A DNA stretch of 44,996 bases. Origin: Tardiphaga sp. (GTDB taxonomy: Bacteria; Pseudomonadota; Alphaproteobacteria; Rhizobiales; Xanthobacteraceae). The translations under genes and the position numbers were made by a program. Under the pieces are notes generated by a model. That model worked only from the letters and a program-made list of their open reading frames with translations. It ran no database searches and was not told the DNA's origin. Positions 9,940 to 33,436 of this stretch are shown in pieces (position 1 is the first letter of the stretch; each line of letters begins with the position of its first letter). The stretch is taken from NCBI GenBank assembly GCA_028290355.1, contig JAQGKA010000504.1, positions 1 through 44,996 of the forward strand. Direction: 5' to 3'.

Positions 9940-9942
9940 GAT

Positions 9943-10783: not shown

Positions 10784-11464
10784 TCACCGTGGCGGCTCAT
10801 CGACCCACACGTCGCTTTGCTTGATACGCTTGATCAGGGCCTGGGGATCGAATTTCCGAAAGTCCAGGGGGATCTCGAACAGACGCGCGGGCTGCGGCTC
10901 TTCCTTAATGTTCTCAGCAGTGATGGTCACCCCGTCTTCCGTCTGGATGCGCAGCGGGAATTTAAGGTCCGCGTCGATCCAGCCGAGGATGTTGCGATTC
11001 GGGGCTGAAACGGCCCGGTAGATGGCAGCGCGGCGTCCGTCGATCATCTCCTCGCCTATGCGCTCGCACAGCCATGAATCGCTCGGGTCCATGGTGCCAG
11101 CGAGCTTCGCCATAGTCTGCCATTGCCGGCAAGGGTCGTTCGGATCGACCGGAACGAACATCCGGGTCAGCCGGCTCGATTGCCGCGCTTCCATGAAAAT
11201 TCTTTCGGCCGGGCGTGCGAAAAAAGCGGCGCGGCTCGTGGCGTTGACCAAAAAGAAGCCGTCCGCAAAATCCGGAGTTTCGATGCGCACCTTGTCGTTG
11301 AAAACACGGAGCTTCCCGGCAGTCGCGGATTCCGGGGCACTGATGTGAGTAGTGACGAGATCGGCCGAAAATTGCTGCGCCTGCGCTGAGACGCAGCCAC
11401 AAATAAGAGCGCTGACGAGGCCGAGAAGGCTCAGCCAGAACGAAACCATCAGGCCTTTGGCCAT
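10784..11464 (-). CDS. Exported LolA/DUF4412-like beta-rich protein
   Basis: Signal peptide ending AQA-QQFSADLV, beta-strand pattern (K.RIE, G.E.IDGR, WID..L.FPLRI, FEIP..F.K) and two Cys in the mature region. Start could be further upstream (11539). Confidence 0.6.
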   Translation of the reverse strand: MAKGLMVSFWLSLLGLVSALICGCVSAQAQQFSADLVTTHISAPESATAGKLRVFNDKVRIETPDFADGFFLVNATSRAAFFARPAERIFMEARQSSRLTRMFVPVDPNDPCRQWQTMAKLAGTMDPSDSWLCERIGEEMIDGRRAAIYRAVSAPNRNILGWIDADLKFPLRIQTEDGVTITAENIKEEPQPARLFEIPLDFRKFDPQALIKRIKQSDVWVDEPPR

Positions 11465-11577
11465 CGCAATAATCCGTTGTATGGGTCCGCACAAAAACAG
11501 CGCCGACCGAGCCATCAGGTTCGATCGGCGCCGCCACAACGAGGTCAGATCATAACCGCGCAGTTATTGTCGTACGA

Positions 11578-13629
11578 TCACTCGGTGTAGGCTTGATTGA
11601 CAGGATGGTCGAAGTCGAAGGTATCGAACAGGTCGGAAAGCGCCGGACTGTTGGTCGGCACGTACGGATTGTTCTTCGCCATTTTCGGGTTGGGAAGATT
11701 GTCACGGCTGCGGCTCGTCAGCGGCTGGAGCTTCCAGTTGCGCTCGATGAACTTCAACAGCGAGACGTGGTCGGCGTAGCCATGGTGGATCTTTCCGCCG
11801 GTCGAATAGGGAGAGAGAATCAGCAACGGAACGCGCGGTCCATCACCGAAGAAGTCGAGCGGCTGGACAAAGCCCGAGTCCCAGTAGCCGCCGGCTTCAT
11901 CCCACGTGATGAACACGACCGTCTCGGCCTTGAGCTTGGGATTATCGTCAAGGGCAGAGAGGACGTTGAGCGCGTAGGCTTCGAACAGATCGACCTTCGA
12001 GCTTTGCGGATGACCATCGAGTAGACCATCGGGCTTGCCGAACGACACCGAAGGCAGGGTGTTGTTCTTGATGGCCGTGATCAGATCCGAGGTATCCTTG
12101 ATATGCACCGTCCGGACTGCGGGGTCGGCCATGATCGACTTCGCGTACTGGAACGGATTGCAGATCTGGCAATAGGCGACGCCGAGGGCATGGGCTGGAT
12201 CCGCGAGCGCCGCTGCGCCCAAGTTAGGACTGGTCGGATTTGCCGCAACCGCCGCATTCGAGAGAGCCACGGCATCATTATACGCACCGCCGTAGTAGGC
12301 CCATGAGACTTGCTTCTCGATCAGGGCGTCACCAATCGTTTTGACGGCTGACGGCGGAAGGTTGTTGCCCCCCGACAAGGCGCCGTTCGGCAGGAAGCCG
12401 GGATTGACGTTGTTGAGCATGTAGTAGTGACGCTGTTTGCAATTGGGCTCCGCGGCGTAGGGCAGATGCTCCAGATAGCTCACGATCGGCTGGACGCCGG
12501 GCTGGAACACGTCCGCGCAGGCGCTGAAGTTGCCATCGACGGTGTACTGATTGATGGTGCCTGCTTTCGGATTAGGATTGGCGATCAGGGTCGTGGGCGG
12601 CGTGGTGGCATTGCCGTTACCGTCGCTCCAGTAACCGGCGTCGCCGGTGCCAAGCATGAAGTGGTTGGCACCGGTACCACCCTGGACCGACTGGTGGAAA
12701 TTGTCGCTCAGGGTGAAGCGGTCGGCCAGCATCTTCAAGACCGGAGCCTGCTCCTGCTCGGCATTGTAGAATCCCATCGAGTTGCCCTGGCTCTTGTTGG
12801 TCGCCGAATAGGAGGCCATTACGAACGGGAAGATATCGCTCTTGCAGCCAGCGGGATTGTCATTCGTCGCGTTGGCGAGGCTGCAATCCTGCTGCTGCCA
12901 TGCCTGGTAGAAGCGGTGCGTCGTGTCACCGGTATAGTCGTCGTCGCTGATGGCAGGACCTTGCAGCGGAAACGGGCCCGCCAGGGTGCCGGCGCCGGGA
13001 ACGCGGGTGTCCAGTGAATTGACCGGCAGGCTGCTGGCGCCGGTCGTCAGAATGTCGAGGTCGGACGGATCCATGTCCTTTTCGACGCTGGCTTCGGCAA
13101 CGGTCTTGAACGGCGGCGCCGTGTCGCTCGATGTCGTCGGAGTGCCAGCAGTGTTGGGCTGCGGCATCGCGTTGGTCGCGCTGTAGGGGAACTTGGCGAC
13201 ATTGGGAGCGCCGATGTAATAGGCCGGTTGAGCTCCGACCGAGAACTGTTGCGCCTGTGCGAAATTCGGACCCGGCGAGCCGTCTTCGTTGACGATTCCC
13301 TTGGACAGAAGGTTGGAAATCGTTTGTCCTTTGCCCTTCGGCCGATACACGCCGAAAGTGTGATCGAGACCGCGATTCTCGCCGATCAAAACGATGACGT
13401 GTTTGATCGGGCTTTCGGTCTTGACTGCGTCTGCGGAATCATTGCCGTGATGCTTGTCGTTATCGTTGTTGTTCTGATCAAGGTTGCTGTGATGGGAATG
13501 CTTGCGCTGGTCCCAGTTGCTTCTGCCTCCTTCAGCGCTGTAGCTTGCGGTAACAATCGCCAGCGTCGAGACGACGCATAACGCGGTCGTGGCACGCCAT
13601 CTTTTTTTCACATCGAATGTCAGTTTCAT
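11578..13629 (-). CDS. Phosphoesterase, phospholipase C/acid phosphatase AcpA family (paralog 1)
   Basis: IKHVIVLIGENRGLDHTFG, LSDNFHQSVQGGTGANH, DGHP, WDEAGGYWD, DGPRVPLLILSPY and DHVSLLKFIERNW. Signal peptide; RBS GAGG before ATG 13629. Confidence 0.92.
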   Translation of the reverse strand: MKLTFDVKKRWRATTALCVVSTLAIVTASYSAEGGRSNWDQRKHSHHSNLDQNNNDNDKHHGNDSADAVKTESPIKHVIVLIGENRGLDHTFGVYRPKGKGQTISNLLSKGIVNEDGSPGPNFAQAQQFSVGAQPAYYIGAPNVAKFPYSATNAMPQPNTAGTPTTSSDTAPPFKTVAEASVEKDMDPSDLDILTTGASSLPVNSLDTRVPGAGTLAGPFPLQGPAISDDDYTGDTTHRFYQAWQQQDCSLANATNDNPAGCKSDIFPFVMASYSATNKSQGNSMGFYNAEQEQAPVLKMLADRFTLSDNFHQSVQGGTGANHFMLGTGDAGYWSDGNGNATTPPTTLIANPNPKAGTINQYTVDGNFSACADVFQPGVQPIVSYLEHLPYAAEPNCKQRHYYMLNNVNPGFLPNGALSGGNNLPPSAVKTIGDALIEKQVSWAYYGGAYNDAVALSNAAVAANPTSPNLGAAALADPAHALGVAYCQICNPFQYAKSIMADPAVRTVHIKDTSDLITAIKNNTLPSVSFGKPDGLLDGHPQSSKVDLFEAYALNVLSALDDNPKLKAETVVFITWDEAGGYWDSGFVQPLDFFGDGPRVPLLILSPYSTGGKIHHGYADHVSLLKFIERNWKLQPLTSRSRDNLPNPKMAKNNPYVPTNSPALSDLFDTFDFDHPVNQAYTE

Positions 13630-13831: not shown

Positions 13832-15211
13832 TCAGCGCGCAGTGTGCCTTGTCTGCAGAACCTGACGCAGAGCCGCATAGTGAGCGTCGTGGACCGTGGG
13901 ATTGAACAGCGACCACGGCTCCGCGCCCGCCAACAATGTGGGCACGGCAGCAACCATCAAATAGCGATAGTTTTTGTATTCGAAGGTCGCGTCGGAGACT
14001 CGACCTTCGGCTGCGGCCATGTCGATGCGGCGCAGCGTGAGGACGAGTTCCTTGAGGGCAAGACGTGCGAGTCCGCGTTCTTGCTGGCCGCCCGACACGC
14101 TGGTGTTCTTCCGATCGGGATAGCGCTCGGTCAGCTCGCGCAATTCGCTGCCGATCGTGTCGACCGCAAGTGCGATAACTTCCCTGTCGTTCGCCGGAAT
14201 TGCGGTTCCGAGAACGGTGGTGAAATCGTTGATTTCCTTGAGCACGGCGCCGGCGCCGTCGTGCTCATAGGGCTGCACGCCATCACCCACTGCGGTGAGA
14301 TAGGCCACCAGATCGCGCCGATCCTGCGTCGACAGACCGAGATCGAACACCCGGTCGAAATGCGCCACCACCTGATCGTAACTGTCGAAACGCCCGTCAT
14401 GAAAATATGGCACGTTGAAATCTGCGTTGCGGAGCGTCGGCGTCTTGAAAAGGCCGCCGGAGCCCACATCGTGCTGTTGATGATCGACGAATGCGGCCGA
14501 CGGCACGTGACAGCCGGCGCAGCTCTGGGCCGGATCGTGCGGAAAAGGTTTCAGGAATAACGCCTCACCGCGCCGCTCGGCATCGCTTATCTGCCCTGTC
14601 AATCGCCCGCCGGGGCCAAGATTGGGATTGGGCAGAAAATCGATGTCGTGGATGTAGGCGACGATGGCGTCGAGAACGCCGGGTGAGGGTTCAGGGCCGG
14701 AAAACTCATTGACGATGACGTTGCGGACGAAATCGCGCAGCGACGCCATCCGGCCGTCGTGGCCGTATGGAGCGAGATAGCGCGCGCCGCGCAAGCTCGG
14801 AATCCTGATCGGATCCAGCACGAAGTTGTCGGCCTTGGGGTTGAACAGCGGACCGGTGGTGTCGAAATTGCCGGGACGCGTCGACATCTTCGGGATGAAG
14901 AACTTGGCGTTGGAGGCACCGTTGACATGGCAGGTGCTACAGCTGACACCGGCCTGTCGCGCTACGCCACCCAGAATCCCGGACGAACTGAAGGCCAGAT
15001 TGCCGAGATTGACCAGATAGGACTTGCCACCGCCAACCGCTTCGGATCGGAACACCTCGCGTGGCTTGTCCAGCGCATCCTCGTTGAGTTCCGTTGTTGC
15101 AGGCAGCGTGGTCTGGTCGCCGTCGACCGGAAAAGCCCCGACGCGTCCATGAAAGCCCATCACCAGGAAGCCGAGCGCGACGGCAACGATCCATGAGCCT
15201 CGAACGGTCAT
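13832..15211 (-). CDS. Di-heme cytochrome c, bacterial cytochrome c peroxidase/MauG superfamily, with a helical C-terminal extension
   Basis: Signal peptide, two CxxCH motifs (CSTCH, CAGCH), RGEALF and FKTPTLRN....PYFHDG. Confidence 0.88.
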   Translation of the reverse strand: MTVRGSWIVAVALGFLVMGFHGRVGAFPVDGDQTTLPATTELNEDALDKPREVFRSEAVGGGKSYLVNLGNLAFSSSGILGGVARQAGVSCSTCHVNGASNAKFFIPKMSTRPGNFDTTGPLFNPKADNFVLDPIRIPSLRGARYLAPYGHDGRMASLRDFVRNVIVNEFSGPEPSPGVLDAIVAYIHDIDFLPNPNLGPGGRLTGQISDAERRGEALFLKPFPHDPAQSCAGCHVPSAAFVDHQQHDVGSGGLFKTPTLRNADFNVPYFHDGRFDSYDQVVAHFDRVFDLGLSTQDRRDLVAYLTAVGDGVQPYEHDGAGAVLKEINDFTTVLGTAIPANDREVIALAVDTIGSELRELTERYPDRKNTSVSGGQQERGLARLALKELVLTLRRIDMAAAEGRVSDATFEYKNYRYLMVAAVPTLLAGAEPWSLFNPTVHDAHYAALRQVLQTRHTAR

Positions 15212-16068
15212 CGCGATGCCGCCTCTAGCGTCGGTCGTTGCAACCGAAGCATGGCCGCTGCGCTTTGCAACGCGACCACGAGTTCCTCGCTCTCGCGACG
15301 CAGTTTCGGAATATCGACGCGCTGCAGATCGCGCCCCGCCAGGAGCGCCTTGAGCTCCTCGATCTTTCCGTCCACCGCATCAGCGAACTTTCGATCGGCC
15401 GATTTGAGCACCGCCGCGAAAATGATGCGATAAGCCAACTGGATGCCGGAGATATTGTTGCGCATGTCGTCCAGCGATGTTCCGCTGATGCGGGATTCGC
15501 CTCCGTCGGCCTTGCTCTCGCCGACCTCGTAGGCAAGCCGCACGGTGCCATCCAGCAATCCCTGCGGTGTGAGCGGCATGTTGCGAAGCTTGCCGTGAAG
15601 ATTGCTCAGATGATCAACGAGAGCATCAGTCTCGTTCTCAACATCGATGCGATTTGCGCCAAACAGCTTCGCCTCGATCGCGTGAAAACCGGTATCGGCG
15701 TTCGGCCAGGCATCGATTTGGGCGTCAAGCTCGGGAACGAAGCCGGCAGTAAAGACTTCCGAACGCTCCCAGCCGGCGCGAGCCGCGATCCAAGCTTTCC
15801 TGGCTCCTGCAAGATCCTTAGCGGCGATCCGCCCGCGCAAGTCGCGCGCGCCTGCTAAAGCCTGACCGATGCCCTCGGTCATATAGGGCCGGTAGCGCTC
15901 CGCGGCTTCGTCAAGCGGCGTAGCGTTTGCACTTCGTGCGCCAGTCACCAACACAACGGATAAAAGACACATGGCGGCCCACTGACGCCGGCGCGCGGGC
16001 GGCCCACAGTCGCGTGCCAGGCTCCGCCTCGGCGACGCAAAGAGTTCACGGCCGAGATAAGGATCCAT
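15208..16068 (-). CDS. EfeO/EfeM-imelysin (peptidase M75-like) metal-binding protein
   Basis: A..AW..AR..WERSE, TGFHAIE (HxxE) and GGESRISGTSLDDMRNN (cf. EfeO GEE..YS.TDL.D...N). Hydrophobic signal segment. The ORF-track start at 16344 is probably over-extended. Confidence 0.82.
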   Translation of the reverse strand: MDPYLGRELFASPRRSLARDCGPPARRRQWAAMCLLSVVLVTGARSANATPLDEAAERYRPYMTEGIGQALAGARDLRGRIAAKDLAGARKAWIAARAGWERSEVFTAGFVPELDAQIDAWPNADTGFHAIEAKLFGANRIDVENETDALVDHLSNLHGKLRNMPLTPQGLLDGTVRLAYEVGESKADGGESRISGTSLDDMRNNISGIQLAYRIIFAAVLKSADRKFADAVDGKIEELKALLAGRDLQRVDIPKLRRESEELVVALQSAAAMLRLQRPTLEAASR

Positions 16069-16476
16069 CACGATTTTGAAACTCTTTGTGTCGCGGCTTG
16101 CATGCTGCGACCGTATGTCGCGCGTAGCGCAATATTGTCTGCTTCGTTTGCCGTTTTGTGACGAGAACGCATTGCGTCGCGATTTTCTCACGCACTCCGA
16201 ATTTTTGTGAGAACGGACGGCTCGAGAGGCCGGGCCTGTTCGCTCTGCGCTTTCTATTCTCTCTCTCTCCATTTTCACGCGAAACATCAATCGGATCTGG
16301 TAGATGCCGCTCGACGACCTTTGTCGGCTGTCAACGCATTCCATGCGATGTCACATTTTTTTCGTCGAGCTGTCACTTAGCTCTGAAACATTTTGCGCGG
16401 CGCTTCGCATTTAATCGTCACGACGTAGCTCTCAGAATTCTTCCAAGTTCAACTCTTCAACAAGGAGGCCATCCCA

Positions 16477-18315
16477 ATGCGTTTGCCAGCAGCCTTAGGA
16501 TTTGTATCTGCTCTCGCACTTGTGATCGCAGCAGCGAGTGCCGTCGCCGCCGACGATCATCGCGGCCGCGGTTCCGACGACTTCAATAGTTCTCGCACCG
16601 CAACGCCGATCAAGCATCTCGTCGTGATCTTTCAGGAAAACGTCTCGTTTGATCACTATTTCGGCACCTATCCGAACGCCCTGAATCTGCAAGACGAAAC
16701 CCGGTTCTCGCCGTCGAAGCACACGCCTAAAGTCAATAATCTCGCGACGCCGCTCGACGTGAACCACAATTTCACACCGCTCGCAGGCGTCGACCTCCTC
16801 AACAACAACCCCAACAGCAATTCCAATGCTCCGGTCGCTCCGAACAGCAGCAAGAGCAATGGCGCTGCCGCGTCCAACCCATTCCGGCTGGCGCCTTCGC
16901 AAGCGCTGACGGCGGATCAGGGTCACAACGAAAGCCCGGAGGAAAGCGCGTACAATAACGGCCGGATGGACGGCTTCCCCGCATTCGTCGGCACTGCAGG
17001 TCCGCCGCCGAGCGGCATCGGCAGCAAGGCGCTCGTCATGGGGTACTACGACGGCAACACCGTCACCGCACTCTGGAATTACGCCCAACATTTCGCATTG
17101 AACGACAACAATTACACGACGCAGTTCGGTCCCTCGACGCCCGGTGCTATCAACCTGATCTCGGGTCAGACCAACGGCATCGCAGCAACGCTGAACGTTC
17201 TCGACGGCTCGGGGAATCTGCTGCACGGCACGCATGAGGCGTTCGGGGGCTCCGACCACATCGCGAGCAACATCACTGAAATCGGCGACGGCGACCCGCT
17301 CCAGGATGTGTGCTCGAATTCGAGCATCGATCAGGTCACCATGGCCGGCAAAAACATTGGCGACCTTCTCAATGCCAAGGGCACCACGTGGGGTTCGTTC
17401 ATGGGCGGGTTCGACCTAACCGCCGTCAACGCCAACGGCACCACCGGCTGCGCACGGGAAACCAATCCGACGGTGCCGGGCACACCTGCTTCCACGTCAG
17501 TCGATTACATTCCCCACCACGCCTGGTTTCAATACTATGAGTCTACTCGGAATCCAACTCACGCGCGTCCTAGTTCGGTTGAGGCCATCGGTCACAGCGT
17601 GATCCCGCATACCAACACGCCGGACCCGGCTAATCACCAATATGACATCAAAGACTTTTTCACGACGTTGAAAGCGGGCAACCTGCCGGCCGTGAGCTTC
17701 CTGAAGGCCGCGGCGTTTGAAGATGGACATGCTGGATATTCGGATCCGATCGATGAGCAGCATTTCCTCGTCCGGGTCATCAATGCGCTACAGAAGAGTC
17801 CGGAATGGTCGGAAACCGCAGTGGTTGTCCTCTATGATGACTCCGATGGCTGGTACGATCATCAGATGCCTCCGATCGTGAACTCGTCGTTCAACCCTGC
17901 GGTAGACACCCTCAACGGCCCCGGAGTCTGCAACACGAGCAACGGCTTTCAGCAGGGAAAAATGGTCCCGGCAGCGCCGCTCAATGGCAACTTCGGCCAG
18001 CCGGCGTGGGGCCGTTGTGGCTATGGAACCCGCATGCCACTGCTGGTGGTTTCGCCTTTCGCGAAACGGAACTACGTCGATCATACCCTGACCGATCAGA
18101 CGTCGGTGCTTCGGTTCGTCGAAGACAACTGGCTTTCCGGTGAGCGCATTCAACCGGGTGGCTCGTTCGACACCATCGCCGGACCTCTCAACAACATGTT
18201 CAACTTCGACGATCGAGATGATGACGGCCCGCGTAAGCTGGTTCTCGATGAGGCGACGGGTGTCGTGATCACCGCTTCCAAGAGCGGCGACGATCGTGAT
18301 CATGATCGTCACTAA
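16477..18315 (+). CDS. Phosphoesterase, phospholipase C/AcpA family (paralog 2)
   Basis: RBS AAGGAGG, Sec signal, IKHLVVIFQENVSFDHYFG, FGPSTPG, DGHAGYSDP, YDDSDGWYDH and GYGTRMPLLVVSP. Confidence 0.93.
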   Translation: MRLPAALGFVSALALVIAAASAVAADDHRGRGSDDFNSSRTATPIKHLVVIFQENVSFDHYFGTYPNALNLQDETRFSPSKHTPKVNNLATPLDVNHNFTPLAGVDLLNNNPNSNSNAPVAPNSSKSNGAAASNPFRLAPSQALTADQGHNESPEESAYNNGRMDGFPAFVGTAGPPPSGIGSKALVMGYYDGNTVTALWNYAQHFALNDNNYTTQFGPSTPGAINLISGQTNGIAATLNVLDGSGNLLHGTHEAFGGSDHIASNITEIGDGDPLQDVCSNSSIDQVTMAGKNIGDLLNAKGTTWGSFMGGFDLTAVNANGTTGCARETNPTVPGTPASTSVDYIPHHAWFQYYESTRNPTHARPSSVEAIGHSVIPHTNTPDPANHQYDIKDFFTTLKAGNLPAVSFLKAAAFEDGHAGYSDPIDEQHFLVRVINALQKSPEWSETAVVVLYDDSDGWYDHQMPPIVNSSFNPAVDTLNGPGVCNTSNGFQQGKMVPAAPLNGNFGQPAWGRCGYGTRMPLLVVSPFAKRNYVDHTLTDQTSVLRFVEDNWLSGERIQPGGSFDTIAGPLNNMFNFDDRDDDGPRKLVLDEATGVVITASKSGDDRDHDRH

Positions 18316-18509: not shown

Positions 18510-18983
18510 ATGGTCGTTGACATCGGATTGTTTGCGCTGCTCTGTTTGCTGAGCTGGGTGCTTGCGTGGATCGATATTCGCCACGGAATCATTCCGGACT
18601 GGCTGAATGCAACCGTCGCCGTTCTGGGATTGTCGAAAGCCGTCATTGCCGGTGGTTCGCTGGCCGGCCTGGAGGTCGCGTGCGAGGGCGCGGCTATCGG
18701 AGTCACATTCTGGCTATTGCGACGGCTGTATTTCGTTTTACGAAAAATCCAGGGCCTTGGTCTGGGAGACGTCAAATTCCTGGCCGCCGCCGGATTGTGG
18801 ATCGGCATTGCTGGGCTTCCCATGTTGTTGCTGGTTGCCGCGCTGACGGCTCTTGCCGCAGCCGGATTCATGCAGGTGGCGGGGCAGCAAATGACTCGCC
18901 GGACGTCCATTTCGTTCGGGCCATTTCTGGCGATCGGCCTGTTGCTCACGCTCGCGTTTCGGCAATACTTGCCACAAAGCTGA
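18510..18983 (+). CDS. gspO: Prepilin peptidase, A24 family (peptidase domain only)
   Basis: Two catalytic Asp motifs (AWIDIRH..IPD and GLGLGDVKF) and C-terminal FGPFL. No N-terminal Cys-rich methyltransferase domain. Start uncertain (18369-18510). Confidence 0.85.
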   Translation: MVVDIGLFALLCLLSWVLAWIDIRHGIIPDWLNATVAVLGLSKAVIAGGSLAGLEVACEGAAIGVTFWLLRRLYFVLRKIQGLGLGDVKFLAAAGLWIGIAGLPMLLLVAALTALAAAGFMQVAGQQMTRRTSISFGPFLAIGLLLTLAFRQYLPQS

Positions 18984-23389: not shown

Positions 23390-23825
23390 TCTCGATCCTT
23401 CCGGTCAACCAGTTGACGCGAATTTCAAAGCCTGCGGCGAACCGCGTCAGCGCGATTGTTCCGCCGCACGACGTTCCGTTGGCGAAAAAACTGATGGTGG
23501 ACAGCGCCGTCCGCCGGTTGCAGGTCTGCGGCAGCAGGGCGTCGAATTGAACATCGTCGGGAATGCGGATCATATCCGTTGTCGCGCCCGACCGGATCGA
23601 GTGCGTTCCGGCATCGACCAGCGTGGCGACGTCCACCCGGCGCCGGATCGCCGCGTTGCGGTCCGCCTTCAGAAGCGTCGCGGTCTGAAGGGCATAGGCC
23701 TGCAGGCGGGAACGGGAAGTCTCATGTGGAATCGACGGCAAAAGCACGGCCGCCATCATGGCGATGAGCGCTAGGACACACACCATCTCGAGCAGGGTGA
23801 AGCCGCGTTCGGCGCCATCACTCAT
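23361..23825 (-). CDS. gspH: T2SS minor pseudopilin H
   Basis: RG-FTLLEMVCVL, ISFFANGTSCGG.I and V.WLTGRI. Start assigned to ATG 23825. Confidence 0.88.
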   Translation of the reverse strand: MSDGAERGFTLLEMVCVLALIAMMAAVLLPSIPHETSRSRLQAYALQTATLLKADRNAAIRRRVDVATLVDAGTHSIRSGATTDMIRIPDDVQFDALLPQTCNRRTALSTISFFANGTSCGGTIALTRFAAGFEIRVNWLTGRIEIVSRSTATN

Positions 23826-24315: not shown

Positions 24316-24333
24316 GATGAACCAGCCCTTGAT

Positions 24334-25548: not shown

Positions 25549-25552
25549 AGTC

Positions 25553-27235
25553 TCACCGTCCGGTTGTGACGCGGAAAATCTCCGCGGGCGAGGTCAGGCC
25601 AGCGCGACACTTCGCAATGCCATCGTCGAGCATCGTCGTCATTCCGGCGCGGATCGCCGTCTCATCGATCTTCAGTCCGTCGGTCTTCTCGCTTATCATC
25701 TGGCGAAGGTCGTTGGTCAGTTCAAGAATTTCGAAGACGCCCAGCCGGCCGCGATAGCCCATGCCGCCGCAGCGCTCGCAGCCGCACGGCTCCGCGATCG
25801 TTTCGCCGGCGCGGAAACCGAAGGCACCGAGCCGGGGATCTTCGGCGAGATCGGCTTCGGTCAGCATCTTCGGCAATTTGCAGCGCTCGCACAGCTGACG
25901 AACGAGCCGTTGCGCGACCACCGCCCGCAGGGTCGATCGCAACAGATAGCCTTCGACGCCGAGATCGAGCAGACGAGGCACTGCCGCGGCCGCGGTTTCG
26001 GTATGCAGCGTCGTCAGCACAAGATGCCCGGTCAGGGCTGCGTGAATGGCCACATGTGCGGTCTCGGAGTCGCGCACCTCACCGACCATGATGACGTCGG
26101 GATCCTGACGCACGAACGAGCGCAGCGCCGCTGCGAACGTTAGCCCTATCGTCGGCTTGATCTGCGATTGATTGACGCCGGGTATTTCGTATTCGACTGG
26201 ATCCTCAATGGTCAGAATTTTTCGAACCGGTTCGTTCAGGATCGACAGGATCGTCGCCAGCGTCGTGGTTTTGCCGCTTCCGGTCGGACCGGTGATGACG
26301 ATCATCCCGTGGGGCAGCGTCAGCAATCGTCTGAGCGTGGCATCATCGGCCGGTGAAAATCCCAACTTTTCGACGACGAGCAGTCCGCGATCCTTTGGCA
26401 GGATGCGGATGACCGCGGATTCCCCATGCTGGGTCGGCATGATCGCAACGCGAATATCGACGTCCGAACGCCCAGCCCGCAGCCGCGCGGCGCCGTCCTG
26501 CGGCAGACGACGCTCCGCGATATTGAGACTCGCGATGATTTTGATGCGAGAAATGACGGCTTGCGGCAAAACGCCGACAGGCGCTGCGACCGGCCGCAGC
26601 AGGCCGTCGATGCGCATGCGGACCACGAGCCCGGTGTGAAAGGGCTCGATATGAATATCGCTCGCGCGCAACTCGACCGCCTTTTCCAAGAGATCGTTGA
26701 CAGCACGTACCACGGGCGCGCCGCTGGCGAGGTCCCGCAAGCTCTCGATATCGTCTTCGCGCGGCTGCCGCGTCGCACCGTCGCCCCCAGCCTCGACGTC
26801 TTCATCGCCCAGACGTAGATTGAGGGCGACCGTGAGGTCTTCAAATGACGCTACCTTGACGGCGACGCCCGCGCCGAGCACGATCTCCGCCGCCCGCCGC
26901 GCCGCCATATCAGTCGGATCCGCGACCGCGAGCACGGGAGTTCCGTCGGCAGATTGATAGGGAAAGACCATCATTTCCCGCAGAAAGCGTTGCGAGAACG
27001 ACGCGACCCGCGGCGGGGCTGACAGCATGTCCTGGAGCGCGACGCATTCCAGACCGTAGAATCGAGCCGCCTCCTCCGCGAACTCGCCGGCCGAAAGATC
27101 GGTGAGCTCCCAGAGCTTGCCTTGACGACGATCGGATCCGCCCTGTTCCGCGGGATCGCCATGGCCGCTTGTCTTCGTCAAATGATTGCTTTGGCGCAGA
27201 TGTTCCGCGAACTGCAAAGACTCTTCGCTGGCCAT
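25553..27235 (-). CDS. gspE: T2SS assembly ATPase E
   Basis: ASDIHIEP, RRLPQDG, GPTGSGKTTTL, TIEDPVE, RQDPDVIMVGEVRD, TGHLVLTTLHT and a tetracysteine motif (CERC...CERC). Confidence 0.97.
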   Translation of the reverse strand: MASEESLQFAEHLRQSNHLTKTSGHGDPAEQGGSDRRQGKLWELTDLSAGEFAEEAARFYGLECVALQDMLSAPPRVASFSQRFLREMMVFPYQSADGTPVLAVADPTDMAARRAAEIVLGAGVAVKVASFEDLTVALNLRLGDEDVEAGGDGATRQPREDDIESLRDLASGAPVVRAVNDLLEKAVELRASDIHIEPFHTGLVVRMRIDGLLRPVAAPVGVLPQAVISRIKIIASLNIAERRLPQDGAARLRAGRSDVDIRVAIMPTQHGESAVIRILPKDRGLLVVEKLGFSPADDATLRRLLTLPHGMIVITGPTGSGKTTTLATILSILNEPVRKILTIEDPVEYEIPGVNQSQIKPTIGLTFAAALRSFVRQDPDVIMVGEVRDSETAHVAIHAALTGHLVLTTLHTETAAAAVPRLLDLGVEGYLLRSTLRAVVAQRLVRQLCERCKLPKMLTEADLAEDPRLGAFGFRAGETIAEPCGCERCGGMGYRGRLGVFEILELTNDLRQMISEKTDGLKIDETAIRAGMTTMLDDGIAKCRAGLTSPAEIFRVTTGR

Positions 27236-27586: not shown

Positions 27587-29929
27587 ATGGCACGCGTCGG
27601 CAACCTCGGCCGAAACCTGACGATCGGTCGCAGCATTTACGCTGTCTTCGTGCTGTTGTCCGCCGGCCTGCTGGCGTCCTGCGGCTCCGCAACTATCAGT
27701 TCCAACACCGACAGCTCCGATATCGGTGTGCTCGACAAGGTCCGCTCGCTGGACATCCTGCCCCGTCAGCCACAGCAAGTGAATGCTGTCGCGACCAACG
27801 CTGGCCAGCGAAATCGCCCGACGATGTTCGAAGGCGCGGAGGTGCCTGACGTCTCCGACGAGCGCCCGCAGCCGACCGCCACCGGCAACGGCTTCGATTT
27901 GAATTTTGAAAACACACCTGTCGCCACCGTAGCCAAAGTGGTGTTAGGCGACATCCTGGGCACGGGCTATACGATCGATCCTAGGGTGCAGGGCACCGTC
28001 AGCCTCGTCTCTGTGAGACCGGTTGCCAAATCGGACATCGTCTTTGTGCTCGAAAATGCCCTGCGGCTGAACGGAATCGTGCTTGTTCGAGACACCGCCG
28101 GTTATCGATTGACGCCGCTGGGCGACGCGGTCGGCTCAGGCCGTGTTGACGCGGCAGCCTCCAGCCCGGAGCCCGGTTTCGGTATCTCCGTGGTGCCTCT
28201 GCAATATGTTTCGGCGCAAACGCTGCTGAAATTGATGGACAGCTTCGCTACCAAAGCTGGCATGGTGCGCGCAGACGTGACGCGAAATCTCCTTCTCATT
28301 CAAGGCAGCGGCGCGGAACGTCGCACGGCCGTAGATACGGCGCTCAGCTTCGACGTCGATTGGATGCGCGGTCAATCGGTCGGAATTTTCCCCATCGTCA
28401 GCAGCAGTCCGGAATCCATTATCGCTGAGCTCGAAAAAATCGTTGATTCCGGCGAGAACGGTCTCAGCCAGAACGTCATCAAGTTTCAACCGGTCAGCCG
28501 CCTCAACGCCATCCTAGTGGTCAGCAAGAAGCCCGCGCTGCTGCGCACGGCCGCGACCTGGATCAAGCGCCTCGATCATGCGGACACCGCGAGAACCAGC
28601 GTTCACGTTTACCGGGTAAAATACGGCGAGGCACGCCAGATCGCTCGCGTGCTCACCGATATGTTCATCGGAGGATCATCCTCGAACCTGCTCGACAACG
28701 CCGACAGCCAGATCGCGCCCGGATCGGGCACTTCCGCGACGTCGAGCGCCGATCGCCTCTCATTAAATGGAAGTTCGTCGTCGTCGACTAATGGCTTCGG
28801 CTCCCGCACGGCATCCGGGACCAACGGCACGTCGGGCTTCGGCGCGCAACCCGCTGCCGGGCCAGCAGGCGTAAACGCGAATGCGTCCGGGGGCGGATCG
28901 CTCGAAAGCCGAAGCTCAGGCTCCGGTCAACCGGTGCTGCAGGGCGTCCGGATCACGCCGGATACCGTCAACAACACCCTGCTGATTTATGCGGATCAAG
29001 AAAACTACCGAGTCATCGAAGCGACGTTGCAACAGGTCGATCAACCGCAGTTGCAGGTCGCGATCGATGCGACCATCGCCGAGGTCACGCTCAATAGCGC
29101 GTTGAGCTATGGCGTTCAGTCTTACCTGACGAGTCACAATCTTGGACTGAAACCCAACCAAGGCTCCATCCTCAACACAACGGCGACGACCCCGCCGGCC
29201 ACCACTGTCGATCCAACAACCGGGGCGGCATCAGTCGCTGGATCGGTCGCCAACGCATTTATCAATCGTGCATTTCCCGGATTCAATTTCCTGATCGGAT
29301 CGGAGACGCAGCCGAGCCTGATTCTCGACGCTCTTCACGCAGTGACCAGCGTCAAGGTTCTATCCAACCCGTCCCTGGTCGTGATCAACAATCAAGCAGC
29401 GACCCTCCAGGTCGGCGACGTTGTGCCAGTTTCCACCGGCAGCGCGACGGTGTTGACGACGAGCAATACCGTCGTGAACACAATCGACTATCGCAACACG
29501 GGTATCATTCTGCGTGTTTCTCCTCGCATCAACGTCAATGGAAATGTCAGGCTTGATGTCGAACAGGAAATCAGCAACGTTTCGTCTGCAACCGCCAGCA
29601 GCTTGACGCCGACGGTCTCTGAACGAAAGGTCAAGAGTTCGATTTCGGTGGCGACTGGTCAGACGGTGCTGCTGGCCGGACTAATCAGCGAGCAGCAGAA
29701 CAACAATCGTAGCGGAATTCCCCTGCTCGACCAGATTCCCGGCTTGGGGGACGGCTTTGCTCACCAGGACAAAACAACCGCCCGCACCGAGCTCATCATC
29801 TTCATCCGGCCGCAGATTATCCGCGACAGCGCGGATGCTCATTTCGTGGCCGAAGAACTTCGAACGAAACTACGTGGAAGTATTGGCGCGAGCTTGACAA
29901 ATGAAACTCGGGTTCCTGGAATACACTGA
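27587..29929 (+). CDS. gspD: T2SS secretin D, lipoprotein (liposecretin)
   Basis: Lipobox LLASC, N0 domain (LNFEN......K.VLGDILG..Y.IDPRVQG.V), QV.IDA.IAEV, A.LQVGD.VP and TELIIFIRP.II. Confidence 0.96.
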   Translation: MARVGNLGRNLTIGRSIYAVFVLLSAGLLASCGSATISSNTDSSDIGVLDKVRSLDILPRQPQQVNAVATNAGQRNRPTMFEGAEVPDVSDERPQPTATGNGFDLNFENTPVATVAKVVLGDILGTGYTIDPRVQGTVSLVSVRPVAKSDIVFVLENALRLNGIVLVRDTAGYRLTPLGDAVGSGRVDAAASSPEPGFGISVVPLQYVSAQTLLKLMDSFATKAGMVRADVTRNLLLIQGSGAERRTAVDTALSFDVDWMRGQSVGIFPIVSSSPESIIAELEKIVDSGENGLSQNVIKFQPVSRLNAILVVSKKPALLRTAATWIKRLDHADTARTSVHVYRVKYGEARQIARVLTDMFIGGSSSNLLDNADSQIAPGSGTSATSSADRLSLNGSSSSSTNGFGSRTASGTNGTSGFGAQPAAGPAGVNANASGGGSLESRSSGSGQPVLQGVRITPDTVNNTLLIYADQENYRVIEATLQQVDQPQLQVAIDATIAEVTLNSALSYGVQSYLTSHNLGLKPNQGSILNTTATTPPATTVDPTTGAASVAGSVANAFINRAFPGFNFLIGSETQPSLILDALHAVTSVKVLSNPSLVVINNQAATLQVGDVVPVSTGSATVLTTSNTVVNTIDYRNTGIILRVSPRINVNGNVRLDVEQEISNVSSATASSLTPTVSERKVKSSISVATGQTVLLAGLISEQQNNNRSGIPLLDQIPGLGDGFAHQDKTTARTELIIFIRPQIIRDSADAHFVAEELRTKLRGSIGASLTNETRVPGIH

Positions 29930-30494
29930 TGCAGCAAAGTCGACGCCGAGTCCTGCTTTTGAGGGGCTTTGCGTTGCGATCCGGAATGTAGTTCCGCTGC
30001 GGCAGATATCGCGGGCAATCCTGCTCGTCATTTTGACATTGAACTCCGCGACGATGCAGGCTGCGCATGCCGACGGATTTAGGCGCGGGACTGCAGCCTA
30101 CTCCATGGGCGATTACGTTCGCGCGGTTAAGGAGTTGTCTCCGTTGGCGCAGCGCGGAGACGGAAAGGCGCTGGCACTACTCGGCTTCATGTACGAACAC
30201 GGCTTCGGCGCGCCGCGAGCTTATGATGTCGCTGCCGATCTCTACGCAAGATCTGCCGCTCGAGGTAATCCGTTGGCCCAGAGCCTGCTTGGATTGATGT
30301 ACGACAAGGGCCACGGCGTCCCGCAAAACGTTGTCCTCGCATATATGTGGCTCAACTTGGCCGCGGCGCGTGGTTCCAAACATGAGCGCTTAGTCTATTC
30401 AAGACTTCGCGACGCGGTCTCGTCGAAAATGACATCAGTTCAGATCATCGAGGGTCAGCGGCTGGCTTTGAACTGGGCTCCGGGACGCTGGTGA
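29901..30494 (+). CDS. Sel1-like repeat protein
   Basis: A..GD..A...LG.MY..G.G, A..GN..AQ..LG.MY..G.GVPQN...AY.W..LAA, with a hydrophobic signal segment. Overlaps the gspD stop. Confidence 0.88.
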   Translation: MKLGFLEYTDAAKSTPSPAFEGLCVAIRNVVPLRQISRAILLVILTLNSATMQAAHADGFRRGTAAYSMGDYVRAVKELSPLAQRGDGKALALLGFMYEHGFGAPRAYDVAADLYARSAARGNPLAQSLLGLMYDKGHGVPQNVVLAYMWLNLAAARGSKHERLVYSRLRDAVSSKMTSVQIIEGQRLALNWAPGRW

Positions 30495-31608: not shown

Positions 31609-33381
31609 ATGTTATCGTCGAGGCCTGTTCGTCAAAATATCCGCAGAATTCTTTGCTCATCGGCGGCGTCGTTGGTGCTTTGCTCCTCCGTCGGTCACGC
31701 TGATGATGGTGGTCGGGGCAACCATCGCGAAGATACGCAAACCCCTATCAAGCACGTCGTAGTCATCATTCCCGAGAACAGAACTTTCGACAATTACTTC
31801 GGGACCTATCCGCACGCGGCCAATATTCCCGGCGAGCAGAGCTGGCTTGCAGTGCCTGCGCCGAAATTCGTGGCGCGCCCCGGCACGCCGGCAGCCAATA
31901 TCCTGACGCCGGCATTGCTGCAGAACAATCCGAATCGAAGCTTGTTAGCGGGCCCCGCCAACCCCACGCGGCTTGGCCCCGCCGACGCCTACACCTGCGA
32001 TATGGCCCATAACTACGAGCCCGAGCAACAAGCGTACAATGGCGGGGCTGTAGATCGCTTCCCGCAGACGGCCAGCGGCAGCGGACAGGGCTGCGCGGTG
32101 GACGGCTCAACCATCATGAATTATTACGACGGCAACACCGTCCAGGCGCTGTGGAACTACGCTCAGCACTACGCCATGAGCGACAATTCCTTCTCCACCA
32201 ACTACGGCCCCACCGTGCCCGGCCACGCCAATATCATTGCGGGCAACACGCATGGTATCATCATTCACGACCCCGCCAACCCCACCAGCCCCAACACCGC
32301 CGGCTTCTACGTCAATCCGGCGGATAAATCGATAACCCTGACCGACGCCAACTTACCCGGCTATCTCGACGATTGCGGCAGCGGCCGGACTTTTGAAATG
32401 ACCGGCAAGAATGTCGGCGATCTCCTCAACGAGAAGAAAGTGACCTGGGGCTATTTCCAAGGTGGCTTCCTGCCGACCAAGCCCGCTACGTTCGATGCAA
32501 ACGGAAAGATGCTTACGCCCGCGGCTTGCGGCTCCCAGCATGTCGCCCATCAGATGGAGATCAACGGCGTCACCTATAGCGTGCAGAACCCGAGCGTTAC
32601 CCCGGGTCCGGACGTGCATAAGCTCGAGAACGACTACAGCACCGGCGTTACCCCTTTCATGAAATATGCGAGCACGCGCAACCCGCACCATCTGCGACCG
32701 AGTTCGGTGGAAATGATTGGCAAGACCGACCAGGCCAACCACCAATACGACATCTCGGATTTCGACGCGGCATTGTCCTACGGCTCATTGCCCTCGGTCA
32801 GCTACGTGAAGGCGCCGGTCTATCAATACGGCCACCCCCAAAATTCCGACCCGCTCGCCGAACAAGCCTTTCTCGTCAAGACAATCAACGCGGTCCAGAA
32901 GTCTCGCTATTGGAAAGACACTGCGATCGTCATCGTTTGGGATGATTCCGACGGCTGGTACGACCACGTCATGCCTCCGCTCTTGACGCCGTCGGCGACC
33001 GAGATCGACTTCCTGTTCGGCCCCGGCAATTGCGGCAAACCGCAACCCGGTGCCGACGCGGCGCGCTGCGGCCTCGGCCCACGCCAGCCACTGCTTGTGA
33101 TCTCGCCCTGGGCGAAATCGAACTTCGTCGATCACACGCTGACTCACCAGGCCTCGGTGCTTCGTTTCATCGAGGACAATTGGAAGCTCGGCTTCATCGA
33201 TGGCCCGGTTGCTCCTCCCGAAGGTACGGGATCCGTCGACCGGTATGCAAATTCGCTCGATAACATGTTCGACTTCAAGCGCGAGCCGAATACGCGTCCT
33301 CTCATCCTCGATCAGGTCACCGGAACGGTTGTCTCGGGTGACAACGACAGTCACGGCCACGACGACAAGCGCGACAACTGA
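31609..33381 (+). CDS. Phosphoesterase, phospholipase C/AcpA family (paralog 3)
   Basis: IKHVVVIIPENRTFDNYFG, YGPTVPGH, YGHPQNSDP, WDDSDGWYDH and GLGPRQPLLVISPW. The signal peptide contains RR. Confidence 0.93.
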   Translation: MLSSRPVRQNIRRILCSSAASLVLCSSVGHADDGGRGNHREDTQTPIKHVVVIIPENRTFDNYFGTYPHAANIPGEQSWLAVPAPKFVARPGTPAANILTPALLQNNPNRSLLAGPANPTRLGPADAYTCDMAHNYEPEQQAYNGGAVDRFPQTASGSGQGCAVDGSTIMNYYDGNTVQALWNYAQHYAMSDNSFSTNYGPTVPGHANIIAGNTHGIIIHDPANPTSPNTAGFYVNPADKSITLTDANLPGYLDDCGSGRTFEMTGKNVGDLLNEKKVTWGYFQGGFLPTKPATFDANGKMLTPAACGSQHVAHQMEINGVTYSVQNPSVTPGPDVHKLENDYSTGVTPFMKYASTRNPHHLRPSSVEMIGKTDQANHQYDISDFDAALSYGSLPSVSYVKAPVYQYGHPQNSDPLAEQAFLVKTINAVQKSRYWKDTAIVIVWDDSDGWYDHVMPPLLTPSATEIDFLFGPGNCGKPQPGADAARCGLGPRQPLLVISPWAKSNFVDHTLTHQASVLRFIEDNWKLGFIDGPVAPPEGTGSVDRYANSLDNMFDFKREPNTRPLILDQVTGTVVSGDNDSHGHDDKRDN

Positions 33382-33406
33382 AACGACTGAACCACGACAA
33401 CTAGCC

Positions 33407-33436
33407 CCGCCGCAGGCATTGCCTGCGGCGGAGTTT
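33407..33436 (+). terminator. Rho-independent terminator after phosphoesterase 3
   Basis: CCGCCGCAGGC-att-GCCTGCGGCGG (11-bp perfect stem) followed by AGTTT. Confidence 0.65.

Follow-up and report, generated by a model that had tools for sequence, protein, structure and literature searches.

A liposecretin-type secretion locus with PF04185 phosphoesterases and a candidate metal-handling EfeO-like/di-heme protein pair

The locus described here comprises three overlapping modules rather than one fixed unit: a type II secretion system (T2SS) with a lipobox-bearing secretin that often adjoins PF04185 phosphoesterase genes, a phosphoesterase (PE1) accompanied by a LolA-fold protein, and an EfeO/EfeM-like protein accompanied by a new di-heme protein of the CCP/MauG fold. 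Our leading interpretation, which is tentative, is that the last of these is a periplasmic iron redox and binding pair recruited to metallate the exported PE1. No published description of a combination of T2SS, PF04185, EfeO-like and di-heme genes was found in the literature searched (main texts, with few subscription papers). The genes of the window, by which is meant the whole 44,996-nt stretch of DNA that was analysed, are as follows.

10784..11464, minus strand: exported protein with the LolA-superfamily fold, partner gene of PE1 (model, fold search)
11578..13629, minus strand: PE1, AcpA/PlcH/NPC-family phosphoesterase with a Sec-type signal and Thr at the nucleophile position (PF04185, 176.6 bits)
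13832..15211, minus strand: di-heme c protein that forms a distinct subfamily of the CCP/MauG fold and ends in a four-helix bundle (PF03150; CxxCH at 91 and 231)
15208..16068, minus strand: EfeO/EfeM-like protein (imelysin, M75-only), its stop overlapping the di-heme start (PF09375, 77.3 bits)
16477..18315, plus strand: PE2, AcpA-like phosphoesterase, accessory (PF04185, 228.4 bits)
18510..18983, plus strand: gspO, prepilin peptidase (A24; PF01478)
19009..27235, minus strand: gspE, F, G, H, I, J, K, L and M, with a GspC/N-like bitopic last gene (Pfam T2SSE, T2SSF, T2SSG, T2SSK, T2SSM_b, PilN, N_methyl)
27587..29929, plus strand: gspD, secretin with a lipobox (liposecretin; TIGR02517; LLAS-C32)
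29901..30494, plus strand: Sel1-repeat protein after gspD, start uncertain (PF08238)
31609..33381, plus strand: PE3, which has Thr at the nucleophile position, has lost the His-His pair and occupies a variable slot after gspD and the Sel1 gene (PF04185, 236.4 bits)

Gene content and distribution

All of the genes named in a preliminary description of this DNA were found at or near the positions claimed for them, with likely starts at 11464 (LolA-like), 13629 (PE1), about 16068 (EfeO-like) and 18510 (gspO). The gene calls also agree with it that PE1 shares the minus strand with the EfeO-like (PF09375), di-heme (PF03150, two CxxCH motifs) and LolA-fold genes, and that gspO follows PE2 on the plus strand. 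A second run also places everything from the LolA-like gene through gspN/C on a single contig, and the block is thus not an assembly artefact. A 24.3-kb contig of run X7 spans positions 10782-19100 with 321 differences from the window, and carries a PE-like stretch about 13 kb beyond, matching the place of PE3. In the window, the block adjoins remnants of low-GC elements.

The T2SS set is complete (secretin, ATPase, platform, pseudopilins, prepilin peptidase), and by its sequence the locus encodes a system of the liposecretin type, lipidation being putative. The secretin gene, which is divergent from the gspE operon, scored 427.8 bits against TIGR02517 (cut-off 351.35), and its lipobox (LLAS-C32), which supports the lipoprotein secretin proposed earlier, recurs in 6/6 relatives with a readable N-terminus (nine relative stretches, of which 3/9 do not begin at the N-terminus). 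GspG and GspM exceeded their NCBIfam cut-offs, while GspE and GspF were over the Pfam but under the NCBIfam cut-offs. The operon runs from gspE to gspM opposite gspD and gspO, as first described, but the label gspN for its last gene is not established, because that gene gave only a weak GspC match (E 5.5e-6, under the cut-off). A Sel1-repeat gene after gspD (29901-30494), overlooked in the earlier account, also lies 3' of gspD in L086, L212, L215 and L222.

The phosphoesterases PE1, PE2 and PE3 all retain the metal and catalytic residues of PF04185 (Glu-Asn, Ser/Thr nucleophile, His and Asp-Asp/Glu). PE2 and PE3 are 41% identical, whereas the identity of PE1 to either reaches only about 27% over a local stretch, so that they represent separate subfamilies and no recent duplication. 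PE2 matches the structure 2d1g at E 1.6e-100 with every motif retained, while PE1 keeps E84, N85, H238, T319, H540, D577 and E578, has CQICN in place of the AcpA His-His pair, carries clade-conserved Cys and Trp close to its active-site motifs, and lacks a twin-arginine motif. None of the three is of the PlcH/PlcN type by TIGR03396 (113-145 bits against a cut-off of 580); all were under the TIGR03397 cut-off and none matched the C-terminal phospholipase C domain PF05506.

The companion of PE1 had no Pfam match of its own, and its homologues gave weak DUF4412 matches in 5/25 and MucB/RseB matches in 4/25 cases. Similarly, the profile of its alignment (25 of 31 intended rows) found no solved relative by sequence. 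Its model (pLDDT 84.5), however, gave fold Z-scores of 10-11 to VioE, LolA and MucB (10.3 to P. aeruginosa LolA), and nearly all of the top fold matches were LolA/RseB/VioE-like (Z 8-11.4). The LolA/DUF4412-like identity suggested previously is therefore borne out at the level of the modelled fold, that of the LolA superfamily (an open beta half-barrel with a helical lid), with lipid binding putative. The gene lies 3' of PE1 in 59/60 loci, and also in G614, in which the di-heme gene was not found.

Co-occurrence of these genes in related genomes, the neighbourhood check proposed in the preliminary description, is strong. Across 60 loci with full flanks, which are kin rather than independent trials, the EfeO-like gene was present in 60, PE1 in 59, the LolA-like gene in 59 and gsp genes in 52, and gene order and spacing were retained in 59. 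The EfeO-like clade was found in 21 genomes of a 300-genome family sample, in all of which (21/21) the di-heme gene adjoins it. The block itself is patchy (22/300 family genomes, 0/13 other genomes of the window's genus, and occurrence on a plasmid), and a phylum-wide sample (2/401) was too sparse to inform. Cultured Bradyrhizobium strains with the cassette include members of the B. elkanii group or B. tropiciagri (among L021, L033 and L040).

Three PF04185 genes are present as first described, but they are neither a single fixed set nor part of one fixed module: a PE2 of at least 55% identity occurs in 3/60 full-flank loci, and the content of the slot 3' of gspD is not constant, with no PF04185 gene in L086 or G569 and a different PF04185 subfamily in G486 and G559. 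The 79 loci were covered to a 10-kb flank, and PE3 lies outside it. The dedicated link between pair and phosphoesterases that had been envisaged is likewise not obligate, as 10 genomes from a different genus have the EfeO-like/di-heme pair with an OprB porin and no phosphoesterase, and close T2SS and PF04185 genes occur without the pair in G486, G559 and G424. Moreover, no di-heme match was found in seven genomes with 45-61% PE1 homologues, nor in G614 (66-68%, split gene). Outside the OprB genus, 10 further di-heme loci had an adjacent PF04185 gene in 9/10 cases, from at least four subfamilies, and in L171, L174, L175 and L180 extra di-heme paralogues have a PF04185 neighbour and no EfeO-like gene. 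A distant di-heme clade adjoins a PhnD-like ABC transporter in an apparent metal-uptake operon (3 of 43 records of distant plasmid contexts were examined). Metagenome loci were analysed as the 16 best of 80 (L087-L102), the remaining 64 being distant cytochrome c proteins.

The EfeO-like and di-heme proteins

The EfeO-like protein is closest among solved structures to Algp7 and EfeM, has its PF09375 domain over the cut-off, and carries both motifs described as the metal sites of EfeM, a protein that binds Fe and Cu: ExxE-D-E (E69, E72, D87, E149) and HxxE (H97, E100), invariant in 34/34 sequences. It thus belongs with EfeO/EfeM (M75), with metal binding predicted, although it scored 105.9 against the NCBIfam EfeO cut-off of 270. 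Neither an EfeU (FTR1) permease nor an EfeB peroxidase is encoded among the genes of the window; one FTR1-family gene lies on a separate contig of the same genome.

The model of the di-heme protein (pLDDT 92.1) matched best the folds of hydrazine synthase gamma (Z 19.4), MbnH (18.9), BccP (18.8), MauG (18.4) and BthA (17.0). Among 67 aligned homologues, E169 is conserved in 66/67, E174 in 47/67 and H247 in 63/67, and by sequence E169 and E174 are candidates for the distal Glu that acts as acid-base at the five-coordinate heme of MauG, BthA and bCCP. Position 285 is Phe in 49/67 and Tyr in 3/67 homologues, and F285 aligns with the CCP position occupied by Met, which we take to be a heme ligand there. 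No conserved Met or Trp column (at least 60% of the 67) was found, meaning that the CCP Met ligand and the bridging Trp are missing. The aligned residues suggest a subfamily whose ligand set differs from those of CCP, MauG/BthA and hydrazine synthase. A hydrazine synthase-like bis-His arrangement via H247 was dropped, as this residue does not align with the distal His of that enzyme. Fusion evidence was also sought, and the N-terminal helical domain of fused di-heme forms proved unlike the EfeO-like protein (profile probability 0.4%, with alignments of only 9 and 34 rows, both shallow). When a di-heme homologue of 95% identity was used to search the Atlas, only uncharacterised 'cytochrome c peroxidase' clusters came back, and a quick tree of homologues served only for picking sequences.

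For the EfeO-like and di-heme proteins, a complex in the periplasm is predicted. Co-folding, a check also proposed in the preliminary description and run for this pair, gave a score of 0.83 against 0.00 for the best of three controls, relative to a mark reached by 116/157 solved pairs and 2/215 mismatched pairs. Runs shared at least 78% of contacts, with partner pLDDT of at least 88. The predicted contacts join di-heme residues 77-78 and 85-88, beside the CxxCH at 91-95, with EfeO residues 76-97, including D83, D87 and H97.

Promoter motifs and possible roles

The following motifs lie upstream of PE1, the EfeO-like gene and PE2.

13707-13679, minus strand: PE1 promoter, three Pho-box-like heptamers spaced by 11 bp (repeat score)
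13735-13719, minus strand: PE1 promoter, slot of the Irr box (ICE) upstream of the heptamers, decayed here (orthologue ICE)
16125..16165, minus strand: EfeO-like/di-heme promoter motif GTCACAAA ... ACAATAT (conserved upstream)
16348..16376, plus strand: Pho-box-like triple repeat upstream of PE2 (pstS matrix)

The Pho-like three-repeat score at PE1 in the window was matched by 2/200 shuffles, and 60/73 orthologues were over the shuffle 95th percentile with three repeats but only 10/73 with two. The score of the triple repeat at PE2, from a matrix derived from 10 pstS promoters within the family, was matched by 0/200 shuffles (p 0.09 for the two-repeat version). An ICE with at most three mismatches was found at 48/73 PE1 orthologues (21/42 after dereplication at 70%), with a fixed 50-bp offset in 52/56, whereas the best match at PE1 in the window has six mismatches. 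At the EfeO-like promoter, an ICE was found in 2/73 cases only, and GTCACAAA is present in 69/73 orthologous upstream regions. Searches for ICEs found none upstream of gspE (0/32 regions), PE2-like (0/6) or PE3-like genes (0/2), and no MntR-type palindrome occurs in the window between 10.5 and 33.7 kb. Pho boxes picked out by eye and a consensus test at the EfeO-like and gspE promoters were not upheld by the pstS matrix: the former was not significant, and at gspE, where 28/32 upstream regions were within three mismatches of the Pho consensus (against 7% of shuffles), 7/32 (two repeats) and 2/32 (three repeats) were above the shuffle 95th percentile.

Related operons carry boxes of metal regulators. 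In the EfeO-diheme-OprB loci, an ICE-like box ends 23-25 nt upstream of TTGAC in 10/10 cases (at most three mismatches in 7/10; shuffles 0/200), and in the mntR-diheme-PhnD loci an MntR box (TAGC-N4-GCTA) follows TTGAC at a distance of 31 nt in 5/5 (shuffles at most 1%). The offset of the PE1 ICE from the inferred -35 is about equal to that in the uptake-like OprB operons, and this position could point to induction by low iron rather than repression.

According to the metal-loading interpretation, the EfeO-like/di-heme complex would bind iron in the periplasm and set its oxidation state, with the C-terminal helical bundle of the di-heme protein predicted to clamp the EfeO-like protein with the metal cleft of the latter facing the region beside heme 1. 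At heme 1 (conserved E169 and E174), H2O2 would be consumed using electrons from EfeO-bound Fe(II), in the manner proposed for EfeB, or the chemistry might alternatively run in the reverse direction, as ferric reduction. PE1 would fold in the periplasm after Sec export and then acquire iron passed on by the pair in this lineage, and the adjacent T2SS would export it to yield phosphate from organic phosphorus. Expression of PE1 would be gated by Irr (iron status) and PhoB (phosphate), the LolA-fold protein would serve PE1 as a chaperone or lipid carrier, and PE2 and PE3 could be additional cargo.

A metal-handling role is suggested by the intact metal motifs, the predicted complex and the regulator boxes of related operons, a phosphoesterase link by PE1 in nearly all loci and by the PF04185 genes adjacent to the further di-heme loci, and service rather than uptake by the lack of a porin or permease gene between the cassette genes in the window and L086, and by the ICE at PE1 rather than at the EfeO-like promoter. 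Also in line with the interpretation, PE1 lacks a twin-arginine motif, and a Tyr-to-His variant of BthA retains peroxidase activity with an external donor. Counting against iron loading of PE1 are the apparently dispensable bound metal of NPC4 and the loss of only about 25% of AcpA activity with EDTA, together with the PE1 homologues that lack a di-heme partner, the T2SS and PF04185 genes that lack the pair, the OprB-like offset of the PE1 ICE and its decay in this genome.

The main rival, which we consider doubtful, is joint scavenging of iron and phosphorus: organic phosphate in soil is iron-bound, PE1 would free both, and the pair would capture the iron as an EfeOB-like uptake system feeding a permease encoded elsewhere, with none passing to PE1. 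The pair's other context of a porin and upstream ICE, the distant clade with an MntR-boxed ABC transporter, the FTR1-family gene on another contig, PF04185 enzymes that exist without the pair, and an ICE at PE1 placed as for low-iron activation are all consistent with this. However, the EfeO-like promoter of this clade rarely has an ICE, the cassette lacks a porin or permease, and the di-heme paralogues that neighbour PF04185 genes but have no EfeO-like gene better fit a direct link between di-heme protein and phosphoesterase. A broader and unlikely reading is that the di-heme subfamily is the redox core of undescribed periplasmic systems that mine metal-phosphate complexes, namely iron-bound organic phosphate in soil (with the EfeO-like protein and T2SS phosphoesterases) and phosphate-ligand-bound manganese on marine roseobacter plasmids (with an MntR-repressed PhnD-like ABC transporter), the soil form being also a dedicated loader of an iron-dependent AcpA-family enzyme.

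It is quite improbable that the di-heme protein is instead a periplasmic peroxidase that removes H2O2 or protects in some other way, the genes being clustered because they are co-regulated on a mobile nutrient-stress island, and nothing passing between the pair and the phosphoesterases. The CCP-like fold, the distal-type Glu and the ccpA genes that are common Irr targets would agree with such a function, as would the patchiness, plasmid copy and low-GC remnants with an island, but the protein lacks both the Met ligand of CCPs and their bridging Trp, the predicted complex sets a metal-binding protein at heme 1, and order and spacing are retained in almost every locus. Of the two functions first proposed for the pair, metal loading or oxidation, metal handling gains support from motifs, complex and boxes, while post-translational oxidation of PE1 by a MauG/BthA-type enzyme is very unlikely: despite the shared fold family, the repeated adjacency to PF04185 genes and the conserved Cys and Trp of PE1, the Tyr required for bis-Fe(IV) in BthA and MauG is Phe here, no Trp is conserved, the nucleophile position of PE1 holds an ordinary Thr, members of the family are also found without a nearby enzyme substrate (OprB and PhnD contexts), and the analogy with BthA fails further in that BthA neighbours a purple acid phosphatase.

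The metal of AcpA/PlcH-family enzymes is unsettled, and little is understood of how Sec-exported metalloenzymes acquire the right metal in the periplasm; the cassette offers a direct test of periplasmic metal loading in bradyrhizobia, which are harmless soil bacteria. The work also delimits a di-heme subfamily that has its own set of ligands, points to two more operons of apparent metal uptake (EfeO-diheme-OprB under Irr, and MntR-diheme-PhnDCE), and, through the predicted complex, would show how imelysin proteins meet heme partners. If metal loading of PE1 is correct, iron sensing would be linked to organic-phosphorus mobilisation in soil.

Comparison with known systems

The pair differs from EfeUOB/EfeM iron uptake and from the ICMP/IrpA-type operons, which join an imelysin with a DUF1111 di-heme protein, in its heme partner, which is a PF03150 di-heme c protein with a helical bundle rather than a DyP (as an excerpt of the published work describes EfeB) or a DUF1111 protein. 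The operon has no EfeU, its neighbours are a phosphoesterase and a T2SS, and the EfeO-like protein has GGESRI in place of GEEDRY.

Among secretion systems, Hxc of P. aeruginosa exports LapA in low phosphate. Like Hxc, Xanthomonas Xps and the phosphate-starvation T2SS of Caulobacter, the locus has adjoining phosphatase-type cargo candidates; its secretin has a lipobox, as HxcQ and XpsD do according to an excerpt of PMC6617341, and, as in Caulobacter (excerpt of PMC2996285), gspO lies in reverse orientation after the last gsp gene. It differs from all three in that the cargo candidates are PF04185 proteins, not LapA/DING or ElpS, in the attached metal-handling pair, and in that no Pho box at gspE is significant with the pstS matrix, export by the window's T2SS being putative.

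The di-heme protein resembles BthA, MauG and MbnH in fold, two CxxCH motifs and a conserved Glu near heme 1, and BthA also in the lack of a bridging Trp and in an adjoining phosphatase gene. It differs from them in Phe for the Tyr axial ligand of their six-coordinate, Tyr/His heme, in the EfeO-like partner and in an identity of 22-24% in structural alignments, and from BthA in that this neighbour is PF04185, not phosA. Hydrazine synthase gamma is the best fold match (rmsd 3.1, 214 aligned, 32% identity), within 1 Z of MbnH, BccP and YhjA, and E174 aligns with its Asp168 position. In contrast to that subunit, the di-heme protein has no third Cys (Ser171) and no His at what, by its numbering, is presumably the gamma-II distal ligand position (Val288/Phe289), and the window has no alpha or beta subunit genes. 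Compared with canonical bacterial cytochrome c peroxidase, it lacks the Met of the Met/His electron-transfer heme and the bridging Trp. Finally, PE1 and PE3 differ from AcpA in lacking the His-His pair, while Glu-Asn, Ser/Thr, His and Asp-Asp/Glu are common to PE1-PE3.

Gene content and setting of the block

Searches of the window against Pfam and NCBIfam confirmed the genes named in the preliminary description: the full set of T2SS genes, three PF04185 phosphoesterases (PE1 to PE3), an imelysin (EfeO-like) protein and a PF03150 di-heme protein. Its claim of a liposecretin is likewise supported by a secretin lipobox, which is retained in 6/6 relatives with a readable N-terminus.

11578-13629, reverse strand: phosphoesterase PE1
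16477-18315, forward strand: phosphoesterase PE2
31609-33381, forward strand: phosphoesterase PE3
1908-10566: catabolic cluster (amidase, M20 hydrolase, PuuE-like allantoinase, FAD monooxygenase, NMT1-type ABC transporter, MarR)
34745-43767: low-GC element remnant (AbiTii, DUF3631, N6/N4 methylase, ParB-like gene)

The window corresponds to contig C557 in a genome that is 78% complete; the closest homologue of its di-heme protein (95% identity) is Nitrobacteraceae by name, and the DNA records holding the locus are mostly soil metagenomes. Another sequencing run (X7) contains a single contig over 10782-19100, with 321 differences from the window and divergence left of 10782, indicating that the gene order is real and the left edge of the block sharp. 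This edge, together with the low-GC remnant, suggests that the cluster is a mobile island; GC beyond 35 kb is 0.53 versus 0.63 for the genome. The substrate of the catabolic cluster is probably an N-heterocycle.

PE2 and PE3 are 41% identical, and PE1 matches them at only ~27% over a local stretch. Further PF04185 fragments occur in the same genome (C352:4386-4760 and C408:9878-10099), one of them 89.6% identical to the PE3 C-terminus. All three enzymes keep the metal-binding and phosphate-attacking residues described for NPC4/AcpA (PMC9837106). Any metal-loading model is weakened by the report that the metal is dispensable in NPC4 (PMC9837106). By inspection, PE1 and PE2 carry Sec-type signals; an RR in PE3 is not conserved in its homologue L175. 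The small gene of the PE1 cassette has a predicted LolA-superfamily fold and, because it follows PE1 even where the EfeO-like/di-heme pair is missing, its product likely serves PE1.

Co-occurrence and modular structure

The preliminary description had read these genes as one module and proposed a neighbourhood survey. Scanning genomes with this di-heme protein as query recovered 79 loci, for the most part from Bradyrhizobium, of which 60 had at least 8 kb upstream and at least 5 kb downstream (19 short-flank loci were dropped). The genes do co-occur: the EfeO-like gene was present in 60/60 full-flank loci, PE1 (at least 60% identity) and the LolA-like gene in 59 each, and gsp genes in 52, but a close PE2 in only three. 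The PE3 slot, beyond reach of these flanks and seen in a few loci only, was empty in L086 and G569, held another PF04185 subfamily in G486 and G559, and was apparently occupied as in the window in X7.

One 300-genome sample of the family, searched with four queries, gave di-heme matches in 22 genomes, EfeO-like in 21, PE1-like in 16 and gspD-like in 61; the surveyed genomes are kin, and these counts are not independent trials. All 21 EfeO-like genes adjoin a di-heme gene. PE1 at 66% identity or more was found in nine genomes, eight of which also carry the pair; in the exception, G614, PE1 is split and accompanied by the LolA-like gene, and the di-heme query found no match there or in seven genomes with 45-61% PE1 homologues. 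Nine genomes encode a gspD match of at least 71% identity: four carry the pair, three have PF04185 genes beside the T2SS with the pair missing, and two have two-partner-secretion and TonB genes instead. Thirteen other genomes of the window's genus gave no match to any of the four queries. The proposed unit thus stands as an association and separates, on these partial co-occurrences, into three overlapping modules: the T2SS and its candidate phosphoesterase cargo, PE1 and its LolA-fold companion, and the EfeO-like/di-heme pair.

A second di-heme paralogue (59-72% identical), often beside a further PF04185 gene, adjoins the cassette in 29/79 loci (e.g. L012:14541-15827, L029:14702-16069). The same T2SS clade lies beside two-partner-secretion haemagglutinin-like genes, with no phosphoesterases, in L218, L220, L228 and L231, the first two also having ShlB, IalB and ExbB genes. 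A PEP-CTERM protein follows the LolA-like gene at L185:272-856, and a contig titled Bordetella parapertussis MAG (L030), probably mis-binned or mislabelled, contains a cassette whose genes are 68-77% identical to the bradyrhizobial ones.

The EfeO-like/di-heme pair

The di-heme model (pLDDT 92.1) combines a CCP/MauG-type two-domain core with a four-helix bundle. Its nearest folds tie at Z 19.4-18.6 (hydrazine synthase gamma, MbnH, BccP, YhjA; Foldseek agrees), with BthA at 17.0; identity as hydrazine synthase gamma was rejected (PMC12607021, PMC12758564). Both CxxCH motifs, E169 (66/67) and H247 (63/67) are conserved among 67 aligned homologues, which have no conserved Trp or Met column. BthA and MauG use a Tyr ligand, whereas the CCP Met position here is Phe in 49/67 and Tyr in only 3/67. 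As Tyr-His ligation is required for bis-Fe(IV) in BthA and the neighbouring phosA is a purple acid phosphatase (PMC6405878), the BthA-type analogy drawn earlier fails and the protein is not a BthA/MauG member. BthA Tyr-to-His or Met variants retain peroxidase activity with an external donor (PMC6405878). Four family members (P0140, P0153, P0164, P0268) are fused to an N-terminal propeller-like region, with weak Reg_prop matches in two.

The EfeO-like protein consists of M75 only and is nearest to Algp7 and EfeM; the HxxE and ExxE-D-E sites described for EfeM/EfeO (PMC9174327) are invariant in 34/34 homologues. Co-folding, also proposed earlier, predicted a complex of the pair with two hemes (score 0.83, best control 0.00; contact agreement between runs at least 78%, partner pLDDT at least 88), above a mark reached by 116/157 solved and 2/215 mismatched pairs, counts that hold only roughly here given our own alignments and hemes. 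The di-heme helical bundle would grip EfeO residues 216-253, and residues beside the first CxxCH would contact 76-97, the metal cleft. No imelysin/di-heme complex is known to have been solved, so the score probably does not reflect a structure already familiar to the predictor.

Regulation and possible role

Irr is described as building up in low iron and repressing or activating according to site position, and Fur-family genes (family level only) are present in the window's genome. An Irr box (ICE; consensus from PMC1698941) with at most three mismatches lies upstream of 48/73 PE1 orthologues (shuffles 0.3%; 21/42 after dereplication), at an offset fixed at 50 bp in 52/56. It is present in close relatives (L001, L014, L074) and decayed in the window's genome and several distant loci. 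With a matrix from 10 pstS promoters and the shuffle 95th percentile as threshold, a three-repeat Pho-like box passed in 60/73 PE1 upstream regions and a two-repeat version in 10/73. The window's boxes at PE1 and PE2 had scores reached by 2/200 and 0/200 shuffles; this matrix gave nothing significant at gspE, EfeO or PE3. In this clade the PE1 promoter would read iron and probably phosphate too.

As a unit, the pair resembles an EfeOB system in which the heme partner is new. In the window's clade it comes with neither a porin nor a permease gene and with essentially no ICE (2/73 EfeO promoters), and it has gained PE1, with its iron- and probably phosphate-reading promoter, as an associate; we therefore favour, tentatively, a supply of iron by the pair to PE1 ahead of T2SS export, inferring every biochemical step. 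Joint Fe/P scavenging is possible, if somewhat less probable. In 10 genomes of genus g246 (L167, L168, L172, L176-L179, L181-L183; di-heme identity 53-61%) grpE and dnaK flank the pair, PF04185 has no match around it, an OprB porin gene is downstream in 6/6 tested, and one or two ICE-like boxes end 23-25 nt before TTGAC, the inferred -35 element, in 10/10; this is likely an undescribed iron-uptake operon. Against pure uptake, a PF04185 gene (PE1-, PE2-, PE3- or Burkholderia-AcpA-like) adjoins 9/10 further di-heme loci in other genera, four of the nine lacking an EfeO-like gene. Protection, with the genes co-clustered, is doubtful, and the oxidative modification of PE1 put forward earlier is very improbable, its Tyr ligand being lost and no Trp column conserved. 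At L173:10824-13751, the gene immediately after the di-heme one encodes a PF04185 enzyme with fused FG-GAP repeats.

A more distant di-heme clade, with an N-terminal helical extension, is found on plasmids of marine Alphaproteobacteria and their relatives (43 records). The order mntR (divergent), di-heme, PhnD-like, PhnC, PhnE is shared by genome G341 and by the three plasmid records that were read; the PhnD-like gene is next to di-heme in 7/16 close metagenome loci, and TTGAC is followed at 31 nt by an MntR-type palindrome in 5/5. The binding protein scores under the PhnD cut-off, and the locus, annotated as phosphonate transport, is likely a metal-uptake system. Such loci, with a fused di-heme gene and the MntR box over the promoter (L082:8036-12886, L083-L085, L091, L093-L098), occur on roseobacter, Labrenzia/Roseibium and Martelella plasmids amid metal-resistance genes.

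The literature search found no description of the T2SS/PF04185/EfeO-like/di-heme combination, in line with the preliminary description. The parts of the combination are of known kinds, namely the liposecretin T2SS (PMC6617341, PMC2996285) and an imelysin with a heme partner. Pairing of imelysin proteins with heme peroxidase genes has been described (PMC3143127); the principle is therefore established, whereas the PF03150 di-heme partner is new.
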